The notes under the pieces are model-generated. The model saw only the letters and a list, made by a program, of their open reading frames with translations. It made no database searches and had not been told where the DNA came from. Position numbers and translations under genes: made by a program. Positions 6,877 to 63,621 of a stretch of 64,000 bases of DNA are shown one piece after another. Position 1 is the stretch's first letter; every line of letters starts with the position of its first letter. Source of the DNA: a virus; IMG/VR virus record IMGVR_UViG_3300010371_000028, positions 1-64,000 of that record; one strand, given 5' to 3'.

Positions 6877-7901
6877 GCGGTGATCTCCCTTCTGGGATTC
6901 GGGAAGATGGTGGCCAGGTCGACGCCCTCTTCGGCCGCGAACTCCTGCATGAGGTCAAGCCCGGTCTGCTTGCGCAGGGTCGCCGCCGACGGGCGTGCGG
7001 CGGTCGCGCCGCTCGTTCCCTGGGCGCGGCGCGACTGGACCCGGTCGACGAAGCTGGGGATGGCGGTGGGCGCGCTGCTCTTCTCGCTCCACTCCACGAG
7101 GCCCTGCCGGACGATGTCGTACGACACTTCCGCGAGAAGTTTCTTCAGTTCTTTTCCGACGCGTCCGATCATCTGATCGGTGGGCTTGTTCTCGATTCCT
7201 TTGCTGACGCGGAAGTCGACCCATTCGGCGATGAGGGTCTGCGAATTCCGTACTGGCTCGATTGGTGGCGCGGGCTCATCGCTTCGCGCCGCAGGCGCGC
7301 ACTCGAACAGCGCGACGGTCACGGCGGCTGGCGCCTGGGTTGGTGGCTTTGGCGCCGCGACGGGCAGGACGGTGACGGAGGCGAGCGGCGCAAGCTCCTC
7401 TTCCTCTTCCATTTCCCCTCCACTTCCACTTCCGGGGCGCGCGCGCGAGGCTTGAGGGCTCACTGCGCCCTCACTGAGGGGTGCGTGAGGATGCCCGGAG
7501 GGCTCCGTGAATTTCGGCGCGGGTGGCTTGGCGCCGGGCTTCGGACTACCGTCGTCCTCGTGGTACGGGCACCCCGGAAGGTGACTCTCGGACGGCCGGT
7601 TGATGCGCTGGTGCTTGCTGAAGTTGATGAAGTGGAGATACCAGGACCCGTTTACCTGGTAGCGGCAGAGCATTTCGACGTCGAGCATTTCCTGAATGTG
7701 CGCCTCGACGTCTTTGATGCTCACCTCGTCCATCTCGAGGGGGTAGATGTCGGCGCGGATCAGGTCGATGTCGTCCTTGACGCGCCCCTTGTCGTCGGCG
7801 TGGACGACGAGGCCTTCGAAGGTCCAACGGGCCGGAAACGACAGCTTCTTGATCGTGCGGGAGCGGAAGGCCTCCGGCTTGATCGTGCGGATGCGCGCCA
7901 T
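6873..7901 (-). CDS. Phage replication initiator-like protein
   Basis: MARIRTIKPEAF...ADDKGR...YLHFINFSKHQRINRPSES N-terminal pattern; upstream of dnaB. Confidence 0.75.
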   Translation of the reverse strand: MARIRTIKPEAFRSRTIKKLSFPARWTFEGLVVHADDKGRVKDDIDLIRADIYPLEMDEVSIKDVEAHIQEMLDVEMLCRYQVNGSWYLHFINFSKHQRINRPSESHLPGCPYHEDDGSPKPGAKPPAPKFTEPSGHPHAPLSEGAVSPQASRARPGSGSGGEMEEEEELAPLASVTVLPVAAPKPPTQAPAAVTVALFECAPAARSDEPAPPIEPVRNSQTLIAEWVDFRVSKGIENKPTDQMIGRVGKELKKLLAEVSYDIVRQGLVEWSEKSSAPTAIPSFVDRVQSRRAQGTSGATAARPSAATLRKQTGLDLMQEFAAEEGVDLATIFPNPRREITA

Positions 7902-51659: not shown

Positions 51660-52076
51660 CTAAGCCGAGGGCTTCGTTGCGGCAGCCTTGCGGGCCCGGG
51701 TGGCCGACTTCTTAGCCGGCTCGGGGCTCGCCGCGGCAGGGGCGGGAAGCGGAGCCGCCGGCGCGACCGCCGAGGCGACCTGCGCCATGCTCAGTCCTCC
51801 GCCGGCCAGGGCTGCGGCGAGTGCCGCGACCGACTGTGCGGCAACGGCGTCGAAGGTGGACTTCGCCGCCTCGGCGGTCTTCTGCTCCTTGTCCGTAAGC
51901 GGCACCTCGGACGGGACGCCGGCCCACAGCGGGTCCTTCGCCAGGTGCGGCTCGCAGCGCGGGCAGTCGACGGACATGTGCACATCGCCCTGGTCGGGCC
52001 GCTCGTCGTAGTGGTGGCCCGCGCAGGCGCCGCCAGGCGGCACGTAGGTGCGGATTCCGGTCTGTGCGTAACGCAA
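51660..52076 (-). CDS. Hypothetical protein with CxxC motif
   Basis: AGGAG-N6-TTG start; VDCPRCE. Confidence 0.7.
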   Translation of the reverse strand: MRYAQTGIRTYVPPGGACAGHHYDERPDQGDVHMSVDCPRCEPHLAKDPLWAGVPSEVPLTDKEQKTAEAAKSTFDAVAAQSVAALAAALAGGGLSMAQVASAVAPAAPLPAPAAASPEPAKKSATRARKAAATKPSA

Positions 52077-52085
52077 AGCTGGCTC

Positions 52086-52388
52086 CTAGGTGGTGTATCC
52101 GGGGGGCGGCAGGATGACGATGGTGACGTCCGGCGGCGTCGCCCCGGCTACTACCGCGGTCAGGCCGGCGTGGAGACGGATGTCGTACGGGAGGGCCACC
52201 TGCGCTGTCGCCGCGATTGCCGCGATCTCGGGGTGCGCGGTGTCGGGCCCGTCGTAGAGGGTGACTGTCGCGCCGCTCTGGCCCGTGTTGATGGTGACGA
52301 GGTGCAGGATGGCGCCGGGGTTGACGTCGAGGTTCTGGGTGCCGGCTGCGTTCAGGTGGAACGCGGCGCCGCCTACGGCCGTGCTGAT
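52086..52388 (-). CDS. Small beta-rich virion-associated protein; inferred ATC start
   Basis: AGGT-N5-ATC AGC ACG; no in-frame ATG/GTG/TTG for about 60 further codons; ILHLVTINTG...VTLYDG. Confidence 0.65.
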   Translation of the reverse strand: MSTAVGGAAFHLNAAGTQNLDVNPGAILHLVTINTGQSGATVTLYDGPDTAHPEIAAIAATAQVALPYDIRLHAGLTAVVAGATPPDVTIVILPPPGYTT

Positions 52389-52696
52389 ACGCCACCTGCT
52401 TCCGGGGTCTTGCGGGGCCGGCGCCCGGGCGCGAGCGGTTCCTGGCACTTGGGGCAGTCGGTTTGCCAGGCGTAACCCACGAACGTGCATGCCGGACAGT
52501 GCGTCGAGGACGTCTTGAGGGGCGCGCTGTAGACGGCGCGCGCGATCATTCCGCCGGATTCGTCCGAAGCGCGCATGATCTCTCGGACGTGTTCGGGCCG
52601 GTCCACCGTGAGGCGTCCGGAGCGGGTCGCGTTGTAGCGGGAGCCGTCTTGCATCTGCAACCCGGTGCAGCCGGGGGGGACGCGGAGTTCGGGCAC
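52373..52696 (-). CDS. Hypothetical protein with C-terminal zinc ribbon
   Basis: AGGA-N6-GTG; CPACTF...CPKC. Confidence 0.7.
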   Translation of the reverse strand: MPELRVPPGCTGLQMQDGSRYNATRSGRLTVDRPEHVREIMRASDESGGMIARAVYSAPLKTSSTHCPACTFVGYAWQTDCPKCQEPLAPGRRPRKTPEAGGVSARP

Positions 52697-52728
52697 GAGG
52701 GTTCCTACCGTTCGGGTTCGTTCGCTAG

Positions 52729-52762
52729 CCGCGTCCGGCCGGGGCTCCCCGGCCGGACGCGG
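52729..52762. terminator. 16-bp perfect hairpin just after the capsid gene
   Basis: ccgcgtccggccgggg ct ccccggccggacgcgg. Confidence 0.7.
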
Positions 52763-52777
52763 GTGCCGCATGGGCGA

Positions 52778-54583
52778 TCAGCTGTAGGTGCCGCCGTTGC
52801 CGACGGTGGTCTTCTGGATGCCCTGCAGCAGGCCGTTGTACTGGACCGCCGGGGAGAACAGTGCCCCGTACATGAACAGGCTGTAGCGGAAGGTCACGTC
52901 CACGACGGGCCACGAGATGGACAGGTAGTCCTGGACCATCACGTTCTCCCACACGTTGCCGACGTTCGTCCACGGCTGCGGGAGCTTGTAGGACAGCGCC
53001 ATGGCGGTGCCCTGCGGGATGTACGGGTGAACCCGGAGGTTCATCACCTTGCGCGTCACCGGGTTGGTGTACTCGCTGACGGCGACGCCGCCGCGCACAC
53101 CCCCGACCTCGCTCTGGTTGATGAAGAACCGGTAGTTGTTCGGGTTGGCCTGGTTGTTCTGGTTCGCGAGCGAACCGGCCAGCCGGGTCAGGTCGCCGCC
53201 CTCGGCCCACAGGTCGTCCGGGTCGGCGAAGATGCCGTTCGGGCCGTCCCACATGCCGGTGAGCATGTTGTTGATGGCGTTCTCCGACAGGATGTCGCCG
53301 ACGGAGTCGTTGACGTACGAGCCCTGGTAGCCGGACGGGTAGACGGCGGAACCGCCGGACGCCGAGTGGCCGGAGATCGTCGGGATGAAACCCTCGTAGT
53401 CCGTGGTCGCCGAGGTGCCGGTGTCGGCGGTCGGCGGGGTCGCAGTCCCGGTCGGCAGCGCGCCCTGCAGGGTGAAGCGGGTCGCGCCGACGGCCGAGGC
53501 CATCAGGTGGAAGCCGCTGTTGGCCGGGGCGGCCGTGCCGGTGCCGACGTAGACGTTGTAGGCGAGCGCGCCGTTGGACGGGCTGATCAGCACGTCGACC
53601 ACGTTGCCAGCCGACCAGGCGACGGACGCGCTGGAGGAGCCCGCGGTCTCGCCGTAGTAGTTCAGCGCCGTGACGATCACGTACACGTTCGTGGTGACGC
53701 CGGACAGCGCCGTCTCGCCGCTGCCCGCGGCGCGAGCCGTGAGACCGGGCGTTCCCGGGGCCGACAAAGCGATCGAAGTCGCGCCGATCATGGCGCGCTC
53801 CTCGAGGACCATCATCTCCTGCAGCAGCACCAGCGACGCGAGCCCCGCGGCGTCGTCGAACCCCTGACCGGCGAACTGCGCCAGCCAGGAAACCGCCTCG
53901 GTCAGGCCGAAGAACTTGTACGGGACATTGACGTCCACGGCGGTCTGCGACCCGGAGGCGGGCAGCTGGTTGGGCCAGTTGTTGCCCGCGATACCGCCGC
54001 CGGCAGGCAGCTCCGGGATCGAGATGCGGTTGGAGGTCACGCCGAGCTGGCCCGGCAGCGCGCCGGAGATCGAGGTCATGACCTTCGCCCGGTGCACGGT
54101 GCCCTGGCCGGGCACACGCGGGATCAGGTTCCGCAGCGGCGAGTAGACCGGGTAGATCAGCTGCGTCGGCGCCGTCAGGTCGAACGGCACCAGGCCGGTC
54201 GCGTTCGGCGAAGTCAGCGTGATGGACTTGCCCAGTTGCGCGGACAGCTGGTCGTTCAGCTGCGACACGAACTGGTTCATCGCGTAGACCTGCGGGCTGT
54301 TCTGCATCGCCATCGACAGGGCGTTGCCGAACGCCGGCGACAGCGACTTCAGGACGGTCGCCGGGTCGGACAGGCCCTTGCGGATGGCCGACTTGAGCAG
54401 GTGCTCGGCGGCGTAGGCCTGGTCGTCCTCGCTGGCGCCGACACGGCGGCCCTTGACGAGGGCGGGGATGCGGCGGGAGATCGCGTCTCCGTAGCCGCCG
54501 TTGCGAACCTCGCCGAGAACCGACTTCGCAATGACGTCGGTGTTCGCCTCGCTCGAGATCTGCTCGATGGTTGCGCGCGTTAT
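52778..54583 (-). CDS. Major capsid protein, about 601 aa, inferred ATA start
   Basis: LVPFDL.AP...SPLRNLIPRV.GQG...YK.FGL...; the frame stays open and codon-adapted for 90 codons upstream of the ORF-track ATG (54313), up to AAGGAG-tggcat-ATA. Confidence 0.85.
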   Translation of the reverse strand: MTRATIEQISSEANTDVIAKSVLGEVRNGGYGDAISRRIPALVKGRRVGASEDDQAYAAEHLLKSAIRKGLSDPATVLKSLSPAFGNALSMAMQNSPQVYAMNQFVSQLNDQLSAQLGKSITLTSPNATGLVPFDLTAPTQLIYPVYSPLRNLIPRVPGQGTVHRAKVMTSISGALPGQLGVTSNRISIPELPAGGGIAGNNWPNQLPASGSQTAVDVNVPYKFFGLTEAVSWLAQFAGQGFDDAAGLASLVLLQEMMVLEERAMIGATSIALSAPGTPGLTARAAGSGETALSGVTTNVYVIVTALNYYGETAGSSSASVAWSAGNVVDVLISPSNGALAYNVYVGTGTAAPANSGFHLMASAVGATRFTLQGALPTGTATPPTADTGTSATTDYEGFIPTISGHSASGGSAVYPSGYQGSYVNDSVGDILSENAINNMLTGMWDGPNGIFADPDDLWAEGGDLTRLAGSLANQNNQANPNNYRFFINQSEVGGVRGGVAVSEYTNPVTRKVMNLRVHPYIPQGTAMALSYKLPQPWTNVGNVWENVMVQDYLSISWPVVDVTFRYSLFMYGALFSPAVQYNGLLQGIQKTTVGNGGTYS

Positions 54584-54614
54584 ATGCCACTCCTTTCCGG
54601 GGTGGTCAGGTGCT

Positions 54615-56963
54615 CTAGCTGAGCAGCTTGACCGCCAGCTCGCGGCCGGCAGTCTTCATCAGTTCATCGAGGGCGGGAAGGGCGATCCCCTGGTCGGGGT
54701 CCTTCGCCTGCTTGACGAGCCTCACGAGCCGCTCCGTACGCGCAGCCTCGTCCCCGCCCGCGGGGACCTCCTGGCCGTCGTGCTTCGCCTTGGTGAGACT
54801 GGCCCCGGACCGCGGCGCCATCTGCGCCGGGTCGGGGGACGATTCGAACTCGGCGATCCTCGCCTCGAGGTCGCCGATGGTCTTGGTGAGGTCACCGAAC
54901 TGGTCGGCGACGAGGTCCCGGATCGTGGACTTCAACATCTCCGGGTCGATGAGGGGCCCCGCGGTGGCAGTGGCGGCCGGCGCGGCGGCTTCCTGCGCGG
55001 GGTTCGCGGCGTTGGCCATCTCGGCCTCCTTCGTGACGTGCGGGGTGACGAGGGACGCGGCGTGCGCGGCGTCGACCGGGATCGGCGTGCTCGTCGCGTT
55101 GGTCTTGCCGAACTGCTGCGGGACGGGCGCGCTCGCGGCGGGAGAAACGCCCATCGCGCCGTGCGCGGACTCGCCCATGGCGCACACGCCCGGGTGCTGG
55201 CCGGCGATGTAGTCGTGCATCGCGGCGAGGACGCCCTTGGCCTGCTCGCGGGCCGCGGTCGTGTAGTAGGTGCGCGCGTCCTTGGCCGCCGACCCGGGGG
55301 ACGCGGCTTCGCGCCCGGCCGTGATCAGAGGGCGCTTGAAGTCGTCGGGGTTCGGAACGTGGCTGGCGAGGGGGATGCGCGGCTTCTGGCCGGAGCCCGC
55401 CGTCTGGTTGGCGCGCCCGGCGGACACATACGGCCGTTCGAACTGGCCCGGGGTGATGCTGCCGGGCTTCACGTGCACGTCCGGGTAGTAGTCGGCGAAC
55501 GCCTTGCGGAGATCCGTCATGGCTTCGGCCATCAGGCCCGAGTCGGCGGCCTTCAGGACCGCGGCGAGGCTGTAGGCGTGCGAGAGGCTGGGCAGCGCCA
55601 TGGCCGCGCTGGCGGAGTCGCCGGCGGTCAACGCCGCGGAGATGGAGGCTGCGAACACGTCGGGGTCGGCGATGTGCGCGAGGCCCTTCGATACGGCGGG
55701 GTGAGCGGCGATCACGTCGTCGGCGCGGTATGCGGCGCAGGTGGCGTCGTGCAGCCGGGCCAGGTGGTAGGCGGCCGGTCCCGCAGCGCTCTTGGTGGCG
55801 TGCGCGGCCGGCGAGTCGGTCGCCTCGTCCTTGTCCTGGGCCGCAGCCGCCGTCTGCACGTCCTCGCGCACGTTCTCGAGCGCCTGGGCGACCATCTGGT
55901 CGGCCGGGTGAGTGGTCGCGTCGGGGTCCTTGGCCTGGGCGGCGAGCGCGGCGTCAGCGTCCTGCTCAAGCCGGTCGATGGCGCGTTCGACGTCCGTGTC
56001 GGCGGTAGACGGCTTGGCTGCCTTCTTCATGGCGGTGCCGCACTGGGCGCAGAACTTGTCGCTCTTGCGCATCGGGGCGTCGCATTCCGAGCAGTTGCCG
56101 GCCTTCTGCGCCTGCGCCTTCTCCGCCGAGTCGTCGTCGGAGTCGCCCTCGTCCTCGGCGTCGTCGGGCTCGCTGCCGTCGTCGCCCTCGAACGGCTTGG
56201 CCGCGCCCTTGAACGGCGGCTTGCCCTTCTCAATCTCGTCGCCGGCCTTGGCCGCAGCCGGCTCGCCTGTGGGCTCGGCGTCCTTCTTCGCGTCGTCGTC
56301 CTTCACGTCTTCGCCCTTCCACGAGTCGGGGATCTTCGCTTCGAATTCGGGCCCCTTGCGGCGGGCGATAGCCATGGCACGCTGCTTGATCTTCTCGGGG
56401 TCGCCCTTGATGTCGTGGTTCAGGTTCGGGGCGATGTCCGCGACGTCTTTCGGGGTGACGATCGGGAATGCGCGGTGCTCCGGGTCGGCGAAGTCCTCAG
56501 TCGGGATCTTGTCGCGGTCCACTCCGCCGCCGACGTTCCGATCGAAGTCCCGCTTGGCGACCTCGCGGACCGAAGGCTCTGCGGTGAGTTGCCGCTTGAG
56601 CGCGTTCAGCTTCGCCAGGTCGCGCGGGGAGAACGACACGGACACGTCCGCCGGGAGCTCCACCGTCACCGTCTCGGCCTCGATCGCCTTCGTGGCGCCC
56701 TGCGCGGGCGCTGGCGCGTCCTGGCGGTCCGGTTCGGTCATGACGGCGGCAATATGCCCCTCCTGGGTTTCTGCGGCGGCCACGTTGGCCGCCGGATTGA
56801 TCTCGGCAACGTCAAGGGCCTTCATCATGAGAATGGGGAATCCGTTTGCCGGCGTACCGACACCATCCACGCGAGTCGGGTCGAACTTCTCCAACTCGGT
56901 GATCTTCTCCAGGTCATCGCCGGCCTCCCCCTGGTTTCCGACCCCTGGAAACGCTGCGGCCAT
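54615..56963 (-). CDS. Large capsid scaffold/maturation-associated protein
   Basis: AGGAGG-N6-ATG; RVDGVGTPANGFPILMMK, a DUF6582-like FADPEHRAFPI segment, CSEC...FCAQCG ribbon, acidic/Ala-rich coils. Confidence 0.75.
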   Translation of the reverse strand: MAAAFPGVGNQGEAGDDLEKITELEKFDPTRVDGVGTPANGFPILMMKALDVAEINPAANVAAAETQEGHIAAVMTEPDRQDAPAPAQGATKAIEAETVTVELPADVSVSFSPRDLAKLNALKRQLTAEPSVREVAKRDFDRNVGGGVDRDKIPTEDFADPEHRAFPIVTPKDVADIAPNLNHDIKGDPEKIKQRAMAIARRKGPEFEAKIPDSWKGEDVKDDDAKKDAEPTGEPAAAKAGDEIEKGKPPFKGAAKPFEGDDGSEPDDAEDEGDSDDDSAEKAQAQKAGNCSECDAPMRKSDKFCAQCGTAMKKAAKPSTADTDVERAIDRLEQDADAALAAQAKDPDATTHPADQMVAQALENVREDVQTAAAAQDKDEATDSPAAHATKSAAGPAAYHLARLHDATCAAYRADDVIAAHPAVSKGLAHIADPDVFAASISAALTAGDSASAAMALPSLSHAYSLAAVLKAADSGLMAEAMTDLRKAFADYYPDVHVKPGSITPGQFERPYVSAGRANQTAGSGQKPRIPLASHVPNPDDFKRPLITAGREAASPGSAAKDARTYYTTAAREQAKGVLAAMHDYIAGQHPGVCAMGESAHGAMGVSPAASAPVPQQFGKTNATSTPIPVDAAHAASLVTPHVTKEAEMANAANPAQEAAAPAATATAGPLIDPEMLKSTIRDLVADQFGDLTKTIGDLEARIAEFESSPDPAQMAPRSGASLTKAKHDGQEVPAGGDEAARTERLVRLVKQAKDPDQGIALPALDELMKTAGRELAVKLLS

Positions 56964-57031: not shown

Positions 57032-58516
57032 GTGGCTACCAATGCAGAGAAATCGGCGTTAGCCGAACGGGCTTTCCTGGCACGCCTCGCCGAACTTGGC
57101 GTCATGCCGGACTACGAAAAGTGGGAGGGCACGGGGCGCCCCCACAAGGCAATCTGCCGTGTGGGCCACGAGTGCTATCCGTACCCCTCCGCGATCCGCA
57201 AAGGAATCGGGCCGTGCAGAGCCTGCGCCGGGCAGGACCCGCGCATGGCAGAGGCGGCGTTCCGGAACCGCCTCGCCGAACTGGGAGCCGCCCCCGTCTA
57301 CGACACCTGGCTCGGTGCGCGCAAAGGCCATGCCGTGATCTGCAAGAACGGGCACGCGTGCCATCCGACGCCCGATGCGATCCGCGCAGGAAACGGTCCC
57401 TGCAACACCTGCGCCGGCACGAACAGTGCGGCGGCCGAACGGAACTACAAGGTCCGGCTCGCTGAACTCGGAGCCGCGCCCGCCTGGACCGCCTGGATCG
57501 GCGCCGCGAAGCCTCACAAGGTCATGTGCCCGCAAGGGCACGAATGCTCCCCGATCCCTTCGGGCGTCATGGGAGGCAAAGGCTTATGTCGGACATGCGC
57601 CCGGCTCGACCCGCTGGTAGCCGAAGTCGCATTCCGACGGCGCCTCGACGAACTCGGCGTCGTCGCCGAATGGGCAACGTGGCGCGGCAATCACGCCAAG
57701 TACCAGGCAACCTGCGCTGCCGGGCACGAGTGCTGGCCGCGCCCTGACCACTTGCGGCGAGGCGACGGGCCCTGCCGCGCCTGTGGGAAGTGCGACCCCG
57801 TCGAGGCCGAGGCCCAGACCCGGCGTCGGCTGGAAGCATCCGGCTTCACGCCGGCTTGGGAACAGTGGGTCGGTGCAGGCCGCCCCCACAAAGTAGCCTG
57901 CCCGGCCGGACACGAGTTCCCCATGTACCCGTCCGCGCTGGCGCGGAGAGGGTGTACGTGCCCTCATTGCGCCGGCACGACTCCGGAAGCGATCGAGAGC
58001 GTCTTTAGGGATGCCGTCGTGAGGCAGGGCGCCACCCCAGCGTGGGGCAGTTGGCTAGGGAGCAGCCAGGGCCACAGGGTCATCTGCAAGAACGGGCATG
58101 TGGTCTACCCCAGGCCGAACGGTGTCGGGCAGGGGCGTGGCGTCTGCCGGTTCTGCAAGGGCCGGGCTTGGGACGTCTTCTACGTCGTGGTCAACGACGT
58201 GAAGCGCGAACTGAAATTCGGGATCACGAGCGGCGACCCCCGGGGGCGCCTTGCCGTCCACAGGAACCGCGGCTTCTCGCATGTGGCCCTGATCGCCGCG
58301 ACTCCGCTGGCCCTGAAGATCGAAACCGCGACGAAGAGAGCCCTCCGCGCCGCCGGACACCGGCCCGCCCACGGCAGGGAGTACTTCGGCCTTGACGCCC
58401 TGGAAGAAGTCTTACAGGTGGCGATCAGCTACGGACTCGAAGCCGGGATCAGTCGCGAAGACTGGCCAGGGCGTCCTGGGACGGCTCTCGCCTTACGGCC
58501 GAGCCTTGCATGCTGA
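57032..58516 (+). CDS. Six tandem zinc-finger repeats plus GIY-YIG/T5orf172-like nuclease domain (free-standing homing-endonuclease-like)
   Basis: Six 62-aa C-x3-H-x15-C-x2-C repeats; C-terminal FYVV...KFGITS..PRGRL..H...IE...GREYF. Confidence 0.85.
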   Translation: MATNAEKSALAERAFLARLAELGVMPDYEKWEGTGRPHKAICRVGHECYPYPSAIRKGIGPCRACAGQDPRMAEAAFRNRLAELGAAPVYDTWLGARKGHAVICKNGHACHPTPDAIRAGNGPCNTCAGTNSAAAERNYKVRLAELGAAPAWTAWIGAAKPHKVMCPQGHECSPIPSGVMGGKGLCRTCARLDPLVAEVAFRRRLDELGVVAEWATWRGNHAKYQATCAAGHECWPRPDHLRRGDGPCRACGKCDPVEAEAQTRRRLEASGFTPAWEQWVGAGRPHKVACPAGHEFPMYPSALARRGCTCPHCAGTTPEAIESVFRDAVVRQGATPAWGSWLGSSQGHRVICKNGHVVYPRPNGVGQGRGVCRFCKGRAWDVFYVVVNDVKRELKFGITSGDPRGRLAVHRNRGFSHVALIAATPLALKIETATKRALRAAGHRPAHGREYFGLDALEEVLQVAISYGLEAGISREDWPGRPGTALALRPSLAC

Positions 58517-58973
58517 CCCCGCGGATCTTGCCGCTCTTGATGAGTTCCCAGGTCTCCGGGGTCCACTGGATCCCCAGGAGCCAGTCCCCGGACTTGATCG
58601 TCTGCGTTGTGCCGTCGGCTGCGGTCAAGTGCCAGTCGGGGCCGCGATAGACATACGATTCCACAACGTTGCCGCTGCCATCCGTGCCCTGCTGATGCCA
58701 CAGCCCCACCGAGCGCGACTTCAGCATGTAGGACCACGCCGCATCCTCGACCGCCTGCGGGCCTGCGAAGTCGCGGAAGCCGTCCGCGGCCACGCCGGCA
58801 TCCGGCTTGTTCGCTGGATACGCGACGTGCAGGGTGAAGCGGCGATCAGGCTGCGACTTCACGACGCGGGCGGCGATGCCCATGCCGTCCCATACGTCAG
58901 GCTGCGCGTCCTTGACGACTTCGCCGCCGTCGATGACCACGCGCTCGGTGCCGTCTTCGATAGTGACGCGCAG
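58449..58973 (-). CDS. XkdF-like putative prohead protease; inferred CTG start
   Basis: HVAYPA..PD..D...VEDAAWSYM...GLWH...VVESYV...GDWLLG...WELIKSGKIRGVSMQG; AGGAG-ctgcat-CTG. Confidence 0.8.
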   Translation of the reverse strand: MRVTIEDGTERVVIDGGEVVKDAQPDVWDGMGIAARVVKSQPDRRFTLHVAYPANKPDAGVAADGFRDFAGPQAVEDAAWSYMLKSRSVGLWHQQGTDGSGNVVESYVYRGPDWHLTAADGTTQTIKSGDWLLGIQWTPETWELIKSGKIRGVSMQGSAVRREPSQDALASLRD

Positions 58974-58982
58974 ATGCAGCTC

Positions 58983-59588
58983 CTACCTGGTTTCGAGCCG
59001 GGTCAGCAGTTCGGTCCAGTCCGCGAAGGCGCGGACGTTCGGGTACTGCCGCCAGGATTGAGGGGTCCACGGGCGTATCGGCGTCCACACGTCGACACCG
59101 GGCCGGGCGATGGTGAGCCACTTCGCGGGGTCATCGTCGATCAGGACGGCCGGATTCATGGGCCCTCGGGCGGCGAGCGCCATCGTTTTCGATGTGGGAC
59201 CGTCGAGGATCTGCCCGTCGCGCGGCACCGCGCTGGCGTCGAGCCACTTTTCAGTGGCGGGCGCGGTGGACGCCGGGCGGTCCGAGGCGATGAGGACCCG
59301 ATGTCCGGAAGCGCGCACGGTTCGCAGCGCCGCGATGGCTTCGCGGTCCGGGGCGAGGTTGAGGATCCACGGGTCGCGTGCGGATTGGGCGAGCAGCCAT
59401 CTCTTCTGGTCTGGCTCGAACAGGTTCACGTACGGGTAGGCGCGCATGTCCGAGACAAGATGCGAGGAGCCGAAGCGCGCGTTGACTGCGGTGCAGCCGG
59501 CTTCGACCTCCTGCGCGAGTACGTTGTCGATGTCGCACACCACGAGCGGTCGTGTCGCCTCGGCCGCGAAAACGGCACCGAGATCCAC
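58983..59588 (-). CDS. HAD-superfamily 5'(3')-nucleotidase-like phosphatase
   Basis: VVCDIDNVLA, IASDRP, VLIDDDP, FADWTEL; GGAGG SD before GTG. Confidence 0.8.
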   Translation of the reverse strand: MDLGAVFAAEATRPLVVCDIDNVLAQEVEAGCTAVNARFGSSHLVSDMRAYPYVNLFEPDQKRWLLAQSARDPWILNLAPDREAIAALRTVRASGHRVLIASDRPASTAPATEKWLDASAVPRDGQILDGPTSKTMALAARGPMNPAVLIDDDPAKWLTIARPGVDVWTPIRPWTPQSWRQYPNVRAFADWTELLTRLETR

Positions 59589-63168: not shown

Positions 63169-63621
63169 TTACGCGGCGGCCGGTTCGTCCTGCCATGCCG
63201 CGGCTTCTTCGAGGTCTTCACGCCAGAGCACCTGGTCTTCGGGCCACTCGCCGTGCCGGAAGTAGGTGACCCGCTGCACTCGCCCGTCAGGGTGGTATTC
63301 GAGTTCGGAGACCGCCGGGCATTTGCGCGAATGAAGGCCGAGGCAGTGCGGGCAGCGCTGCTTGTCGAACACGGTGGTCTTCAACCCGGCGACGCCTGGG
63401 AAGGGCGGGGGCTCGTCGACCACCTGCAGGAGTTGGCGGGCAAGAGCAGGGTCGAGGCGCAGCGCGGCCCGGGCCGAGCCTCGCCGCCGTTCGTCGCGGC
63501 GCGCTATGTAGGCGTTCTTGGCGCGCCTGGCGTGGTGGCGGAGCCGGTGGCCGTGGCGGCCCAGCTTGTCGTAGAGGCTGCCCGGCCAGCCGAGCGGGGC
63601 GCGGATCACGTCGGTGAACGT
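63169..63621 (-). CDS. Zinc-binding hypothetical protein; inferred ACG start
   Basis: CPHCLGLHSRKCP; GAGGAGG-N5-ACG in frame, whereas the first GTG is 17 nt from the SD. Confidence 0.6.
   Translation of the reverse strand, partial: TFTDVIRAPLGWPGSLYDKLGRHGHRLRHHARRAKNAYIARRDERRRGSARAALRLDPALARQLLQVVDEPPPFPGVAGLKTTVFDKQRCPHCLGLHSRKCPAVSELEYHPDGRVQRVTYFRHGEWPEDQVLWREDLEEAAAWQDEPAAA

Follow-up and report, generated by a model that had tools for sequence, protein, structure and literature searches.

A probable long ribosome-binding site shared by two near-cognate start positions in the head module of a soil virus

The DNA analysed here (the window, 64,000 nucleotides (nt)) is the first 64 kb of the virus record IMGVR_UViG_3300010371_000028 in IMG/VR, a linear soil sequence of 132,777 bases with 69% GC and a completeness of about 89%. 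On its minus strand two genes of the phage head module, encoding the major capsid protein and a 100-residue protein here called p100, start, as far as comparison can show, at the near-cognate codons ATA (54583) and ATC (52388). Each start is preceded by one of two similar 22-mers, which an earlier note on this DNA had pointed out and whose positions we could confirm exactly (Table 1). Aligned without gaps, they share 17 of 22 positions and keep one register relative to both start codons, with the identical spacing described in that note. We consider it probable that these 22-mers represent a long ribosome-binding site (RBS), present in two copies and tuned for weak AUH starts (H being A, C or U). 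Taken alone, the motif is mostly an extreme form of an ordinary RBS and not a new control element. The more interesting part of the result is that this capsid family of actinobacterial phages mostly starts at ATA, ATC or CTG.

Start positions in the window and in its relatives

Orthologues have Met, GTG, ATG, TTG, CTG, ATC or ATA at exactly these positions, so that both codons can be taken as true starts. This agrees with the premise of the earlier note that both genes begin at AT[A/C]. The shared sequence is a cis element of translation initiation. The capsid frame is open and coding-like from the ATA onwards, with a G+C fraction at third codon positions (GC3) of 0.92 over the 90 codons preceding the first in-frame canonical codon, ATG 54313. 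Genome-wide, ATA is found at 0.66 per 1000 codons. Orthologues have the N-termini M-S-A-A-V or M-T-R-I-S. The coding score of the p100 frame reaches its maximum exactly at 52388, and the p100 orthologues P0005-P0012 (58-74% identity) begin with M-S/T-A-A-V-G-G, compared to I-S-T-A-V-G-G in the window. P0004, a p100 relative with 96% identity, has kept Ile at the start position. An assembly error is excluded, because an independent soil sequencing run (X2) covers 54445-54700 without any difference and because P0004 and the capsid relative L003 independently keep their Ile codons. In a further run (X4, records 23 and 29), contigs aligned at 80% similarity span both sites. The runs listed for this stretch include no RNA run.

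Gene finders misplace where the capsid protein, the prohead protease and p100 begin, both in this phage and in many relatives. On the public record, the window capsid protein comprises 511 amino acids counted from ATG 54313 (P0018), and the calls in relatives range from 545 to 615 amino acids for a protein of about 600. The public p100 has 134 amino acids (P0004) and is called from an upstream ATG.

We called 212 genes on the 133-kb genome by a codon-usage score and the energy of the Shine-Dalgarno (SD) interaction. The ATA and ATC genes were the sole robust non-canonical starts obtained from this gene caller; CTG 58973, in front of the gene for an XkdF-type prohead protease, came next. This CTG was verified by orthologues beginning with MRVTIEDG, where the window reads CTG-RVTIEDG. 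The protease calls in two relatives are truncated (P0139) or over-long (P0138), which suggests that they share the weak start. Protease relatives from IMG/VR differ at the N-terminus and are therefore uninformative for the CTG. A candidate ACG start was also seen at 63621 on the minus strand, behind GAGGAG-GCCGAG and with G at position -1; no relatives were found.

The capsid start was then surveyed in 22 distinct lineages with readable DNA, the window included, by aligning the codon behind the SD. The closest relatives, P0017 (87%), P0019/P0020 (79%), P0021 (72%), P0009/P0083 and P0004 (96%), stand outside this DNA comparison, and a second viral scan, made with P0017, added no further loci. 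In 13 of the 22 lineages the capsid gene starts with ATA (the window and L003), ATC (L009, L037) or CTG (L006, L007, L010, L012, L013, L014, L032, L161, L167), behind a strong SD and a T-rich spacer. Five lineages have GTG (L004, L018, L162, L163, L164), three have ATG (L005, L160, L171) and L011 has TTG. A maximum-likelihood tree of 20 of these lineages implies that the start changed between the canonical and the near-cognate type about five times. One clade of seven, with 100/100 support, has near-cognate starts throughout, six of them CTG and one ATC. The starts of L033 and L035 are ambiguous, neither having a well-placed canonical start: L033 (2341-2455) reads AGGAG-T-ATC-GTA-GTA in this region, and L035 (255-351) reads AAGGAGTGATC-TTT-ACG, where ACG is a possible start. 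Among the papers available to our literature searches, none dealt with near-cognate starts in capsid genes of phages.

Anatomy of the shared sequence

Duplexes were folded with the actinobacterial 16S tail GAUCACCUCCUUUCU, which is present once each in three actinobacterial genomes with related prophages, at about 1.5 kb on small contigs. At the capsid site GGAAAGGA pairs with UCCUUUCU and GUGGC with G(A)UCAC, giving 13 paired bases. At the p100 site GGAAG pairs with CUUUC and AGGUGGC with G(A)UCACCU, giving 12. Both duplexes cover GGAA and GUGGC, so that both shared blocks flanking the four variable bases of the motif are SD-type complementarity; that GGAA(A)G and GUGGC complement the 16S 3' tail is shown by these duplexes. 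The claim of the earlier note that the match extends well beyond the SD is thus only partly right. GGAA and GTGGC make up nine of the 17 shared positions and two more are the AT of the start codon, while the five bases ACCCC are left unexplained by rRNA pairing. In a genome-wide SD scan the capsid site reached -13.9 and the p100 site -13.1 kcal/mol, ranks 9 and 14 of 212. The distance from GGAG/CAGG to the start is 6 nt at both sites.

When the start contexts of the 212 genes were compared in register, an identity of at least 17/22 was found in 7 of 22,366 pairs, and an exact shared run of at least nine bases in 25 of 22,154 pairs. The similarity of the two 22-mers is real and exceeds chance, though several ordinary RBS pairs of this genome are equally alike. 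It ends sharply at the edges of the 22-mer. A scan of the entire record for ACCCCGGAA-N4-GTGGC-R-TAT, as the earlier note had proposed, recovered both sites and no further copy, even with two mismatches allowed. The 5' half ACCCCGGAA has a third and only other genome copy at 7571-7579 on the plus strand, followed by GGTGA, antisense to the genes there and away from any start; this copy is probably due to chance.

The two closest matches to the capsid RBS among the 211 other genes are the other two near-cognate genes (15/20 and 13/20; next best 11), which suggests that these head-module genes have one class of RBS in common. G-C-R-T precedes each of the three verified near-cognate starts and stands nowhere else before starts of this genome. 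Among the 203 canonical genes, T is found at position -1 in 12 (6%) and C-R-T before the start in none. Fisher's test for T(-1) alone gave about 3e-4. Within the capsid family most lineages have T at -1 irrespective of the start codon (TAT-ATA, TAT-GTG, TTT-CTG, TTT-ATC). RNA folding revealed no shared or unusually stable structure at the two sites (z -1.3 and +1.1), Rfam covariance models gave no match in 51800-55200 at E values up to 1, and no promoter-like site was found at the motif.

A likely origin of the 5' half is seen in L003, the other relative with an ATA start. There, CACCCCGG lies just before the SD and represents the codons T-P-R and the stop of the upstream gene. The intergenic stretch 54599-54617 (minus strand) of the window aligns with L003:2994-3014, that is with the last codons of this upstream gene. 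In the window its TAG comes earlier than the stop in L003, so that the spacer would be a former coding tail. Most simply, ACCCC at the capsid site would be an inherited remnant of the C-terminal codons of the upstream gene. At the p100 site, ACCCCGGAA falls within the tail of the zinc-ribbon gene, where a different frame reads it as T-P-E. No ACCCCGG is present in L004, L018 or L037 or in any lineage with a CTG or ATC start. P0021, an over-long call with the sequence ...SSLGGC-I-RATL, keeps the Ile start although, judged by back-translation, it cannot encode ACCCCGGAA. A scan of IMG/VR for ACCCCGGAANNNNGTGGC gave 98 matches, none followed by RTAT and none in a relative. Conservation in relatives, which the earlier note had proposed to check, was not found: among those with readable DNA the 5' half is restricted to L003, where it is coding.

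Interpretation of the two sites

In the explanation we favour, the long RBS would enable 30S subunits to initiate on near-cognate codons, namely AUA in the capsid gene and AUC in p100. GGAA(A)G and GUGGC would pair with the 16S tail over 12-13 bases, compared to the usual 4-6, and thereby hold the ribosome firmly. The 6-nt gap behind the SD core ends with C-R-U and is followed by the AU of the start codon. The U at -1 could form a fourth base pair with A37 of the formylmethionine (fMet) initiator tRNA, which should help a codon mismatched at its third base. No separate trans-acting factor would be needed. The sites may be alike because both weak starts came under selection for one strong context, or because a short RBS patch was copied locally. 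Initiation would presumably occur with fMet and be sensitive to initiation factor 3 (IF3). Neither a tRNA-Ile nor an initiator tRNA was detected when these were looked for in the phage, which has only two tRNA-Gly-like genes, and no homologue of IF3 or IF1 was found.

Hollerer and Jeschek 2023 (PMC10018350; Esposito et al. 2003 cited there) document the pairing of U(-1) with A37 of the initiator tRNA and describe a modest effect in E. coli and chloroplasts. By analogy to this work we infer the same pairing at the starts described here. As in the published quadruplet pairing, each of the three near-cognate start codons of the window has U immediately in front of it. Unlike the published cases, ours concern an actinobacterial phage and the codons AUA and AUC, and two CTG relatives lack U(-1).

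Several points weigh against this explanation. The first five bases of the in-register 9-mer ACCCCGGAA are not covered by SD pairing, and an in-register identity of 17/22 is rare among the gene starts compared. For the virion protein made in the largest amount, such a codon is a surprising choice: in E. coli, AUA, AUC and CUG reach only 1-2% of the AUG level (10.1101/063800). Moreover, U at -1 is not universal, since L161 has A and L167 has C before CTG. The GTG and TTG capsid starts mostly have T(-1), too, so T(-1) may be a feature of the gene and not of weak codons.

The activator or repressor site suggested in the earlier note would turn the whole 22-mer or just ACCCCGGAA, its 5' half, into an operator at which an RNA-binding protein of phage or host controls both genes together. 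Such sites are known from T4 RegA, which acts at several RBSs, and from the coat protein operator of RNA phages, which likewise overlaps the RBS. As there, the shared sequence spans the region from the SD to the start in more than one gene. The rarity of the in-register identity, the five bases ACCCC left over from rRNA pairing, the sharp ends of the likeness and the presence of CACCCCGG just before the SD of L003 would all fit an operator. However, there are only two sites, and the RBS at 58973, the third of the near-cognate type, has the SD and GCAT in common with them but no ACCCCGGAA. Nor is the 5' half present in L004, L018, L037 or any lineage with a CTG or ATC start; P0021 apparently lacks it, too, while retaining its Ile start, and the copy in L003 is coding sequence. 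In addition, the 98 pattern matches in IMG/VR look random. Unlike the known operators, the sites have no conserved fold and the motif is not conserved in relatives, and no candidate regulator was identified. Nothing supports the proposed binding site, and we judge it quite improbable. It is likewise unlikely, if a little less surprising, that the likeness beyond a generic strong SD is functionless, being either a chance match of GC-rich RBSs or a patch copied as p100 moved. Seven RBS pairs of this genome reach 17/22 and 25 share an in-register 9-mer, and a further ACCCCGGAA lies away from any start (7571, plus strand). The order of p100 and the zinc-ribbon gene varies among relatives, and the 5' half at the capsid site appears to be a remnant of upstream coding sequence. 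Against this stand a p of about 3e-4 for a pair that was named in advance and comprises the only two AUH starts, the finding that exactly the other near-cognate genes are the two closest genome matches of the capsid RBS, and the occurrence of G-C-R-T before the start solely at these three genes.

The earlier note had alternatively considered initiation at the embedded out-of-frame GTG (54590 and 52395), giving Met-Ala-Tyr, followed by a +1 shift into the gene frame. The two GTGs agree in their frame relative to the gene and precede AT[A/C] by 7 nt, and TAT is rare here (2.6 per 1000). Programmed +1 frameshifting is known from the prfB type, which the two sites resemble in having an out-of-frame GTG 7 nt upstream in the -1 register. 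Unlike at prfB-type sites, there is no slippery, stop or hungry codon, no usable SD spacing and no conservation. The GTG follows GGAG at a distance of 0 nt at the capsid site and lies inside AGGTG at the p100 site. No slippery P-site codon is present, tRNA-Tyr cannot re-pair in +1 at UAU-A or UAU-C, and what follows is neither a stop nor a rare codon but the common AAC or CAG. Relatives with ATA, ATC or CTG starts have no embedded ATG, GTG or TTG, and orthologue N-termini align to the AT[A/C] position without an extra M-A-Y. The open reading frames starting from the embedded GTGs (621 amino acids, 52725-54590, and 227 amino acids, 51712-52395, both minus strand) are shadows of the real genes, because the GC3 of 0.91-0.95 keeps T from their first codon position. 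We therefore rejected a GTG start with frameshift, which the SD spacing, the non-slippery codons, the relatives and the orthologue N-termini effectively exclude.

SD-led near-cognate starts are known from E. coli, where infC and pcnB start with AUU and infC is autoregulated through IF3. The favoured reading, a long RBS for weak starts, resembles these examples in that a strong SD precedes the codon at the usual distance, orthologues have ATG or GTG in its place, and gene finders truncate or over-extend the proteins (P0018, P0004). Unlike in E. coli, three head genes of a phage are concerned, among them those for the major capsid protein and the prohead protease, and the weak codon is found in 13 of 22 capsid lineages and retained throughout a well-supported clade of seven. 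This raises the questions how an abundant protein arises from a weak start and whether long SD pairing together with U(-1) compensates for it. It could further be, though we give this little credit, that the RBS class (long SD, spacer ending with GCRU, ATA/ATC/CTG) is a timing device for translation late in infection. Late translation might then rely on a relaxed start-codon proofreading by IF3 or on a phage factor recognising ACCCCGGAA, and selection, not drift, would keep weak capsid start codons across this actinophage family.

The capsid protein and its genomic setting

The minus-strand head module comprises, in order, a portal fusion, the XkdF-type protease, a zinc-ribbon gene of about 780 amino acids, the capsid gene, a 107-residue zinc-ribbon gene and p100 (Table 1). 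The stop of the 107-residue gene lies 13 nt past ATC 52388, resulting in a 16-nt overlap with p100. In L009, L013 and L019 the gene order differs, a p100 homologue starting at ATG and standing before the zinc-ribbon gene. L003 and L004 are without p100, and another zinc-binding gene follows instead. Prophages related to the window phage were found in Arthrobacter, Streptomyces, Actinoallomurus and Amycolatopsis, which indicates Actinomycetota as hosts.

Table 1. Features of the head module in the window (SD, Shine-Dalgarno; GC3, G+C at third codon positions)
Feature	Position	Strand	Remarks
XkdF-type prohead protease (PF14550)	58449..58993	-	gene 58973-58449; CTG 58973 behind TAGGAG-CTGCAT
Upstream gene, about 780 amino acids, internal zinc ribbon	54615..56963	-	stop TAG 54617-54615, 31 nt before ATA
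Motif copy 1, ACCCCGGAAAGGAGTGGCATAT	54582..54603	-	ends with the AT of the ATA start codon
SD block GGAAAGGAG	54590..54598	-	with GUGGC (54590-54586) pairs 13 nt to the 16S tail, -14.3 kcal/mol
6-nt spacer TGGCAT	54584..54589	-	ends with C-A-U, U at -1
ATA start codon of the major capsid gene	54581..54583	-	only ATA codon of the gene
Major capsid protein gene, 601 amino acids + stop	52778..54583	-	GC3 0.95
107-residue zinc-ribbon gene (CPAC...CPKC)	52373..52696	-	probably GTG start; stop TAG 52375-52373
Motif copy 2, ACCCCGGAAGCAGGTGGCGTAT	52387..52408	-	within the 3' end of the upstream zinc-ribbon gene, read K-T-P-E-A-G-G-V-S
Two-part SD, GGAAG + AGGUGGC	52391..52403	-	duplex with the 16S tail, -13.5 kcal/mol
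ATC start codon of p100	52386..52388	-	preceded by C-G-U
p100, 100 amino acids, no known function	52086..52388	-	GC3 0.91

The designation of the 601-residue product as capsid protein in the earlier note is supported by structure prediction. AlphaFold2 with an alignment of 103 sequences gave a model with a mean predicted local distance difference test score (pLDDT) of 83.5 and a predicted template modelling score (pTM) of 0.74; with just 14 sequences the pLDDT was 44.8 and the model unusable. Foldseek matched the 103-sequence model to the capsid proteins of Pa223, SPO1, SU10, T5 and HK97 with E values down to 7.7e-11, as expected of a major capsid protein with predicted HK97 fold. Searches of the protein against Pfam, against PF17236 (SU10_MCP) and against PDB sequences gave no match, ESM Atlas only a weak SU10_MCP lead, and PHROGs the unnamed family phrog_13692.

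The model predicts helices for residues 14-117, resembling a delta or scaffolding domain, and an inserted beta-rich domain at about 270-400. As an XkdF-type protease is encoded upstream, the helical N-terminal region is probably removed by this enzyme at maturation. N-terminal sequencing of virion protein may therefore not show the capsid start.

Directly after the capsid stop, at 52730-52761 on the minus strand, lies a perfect 15-bp GC-rich inverted repeat (CGCGTCCGGCCGGGG..CCCCGGCCGGACGCG) without a U tract, which is likely a terminator or an mRNA-stabilising hairpin. The relative L022 (81%) has a different hairpin at the same place after the capsid stop.

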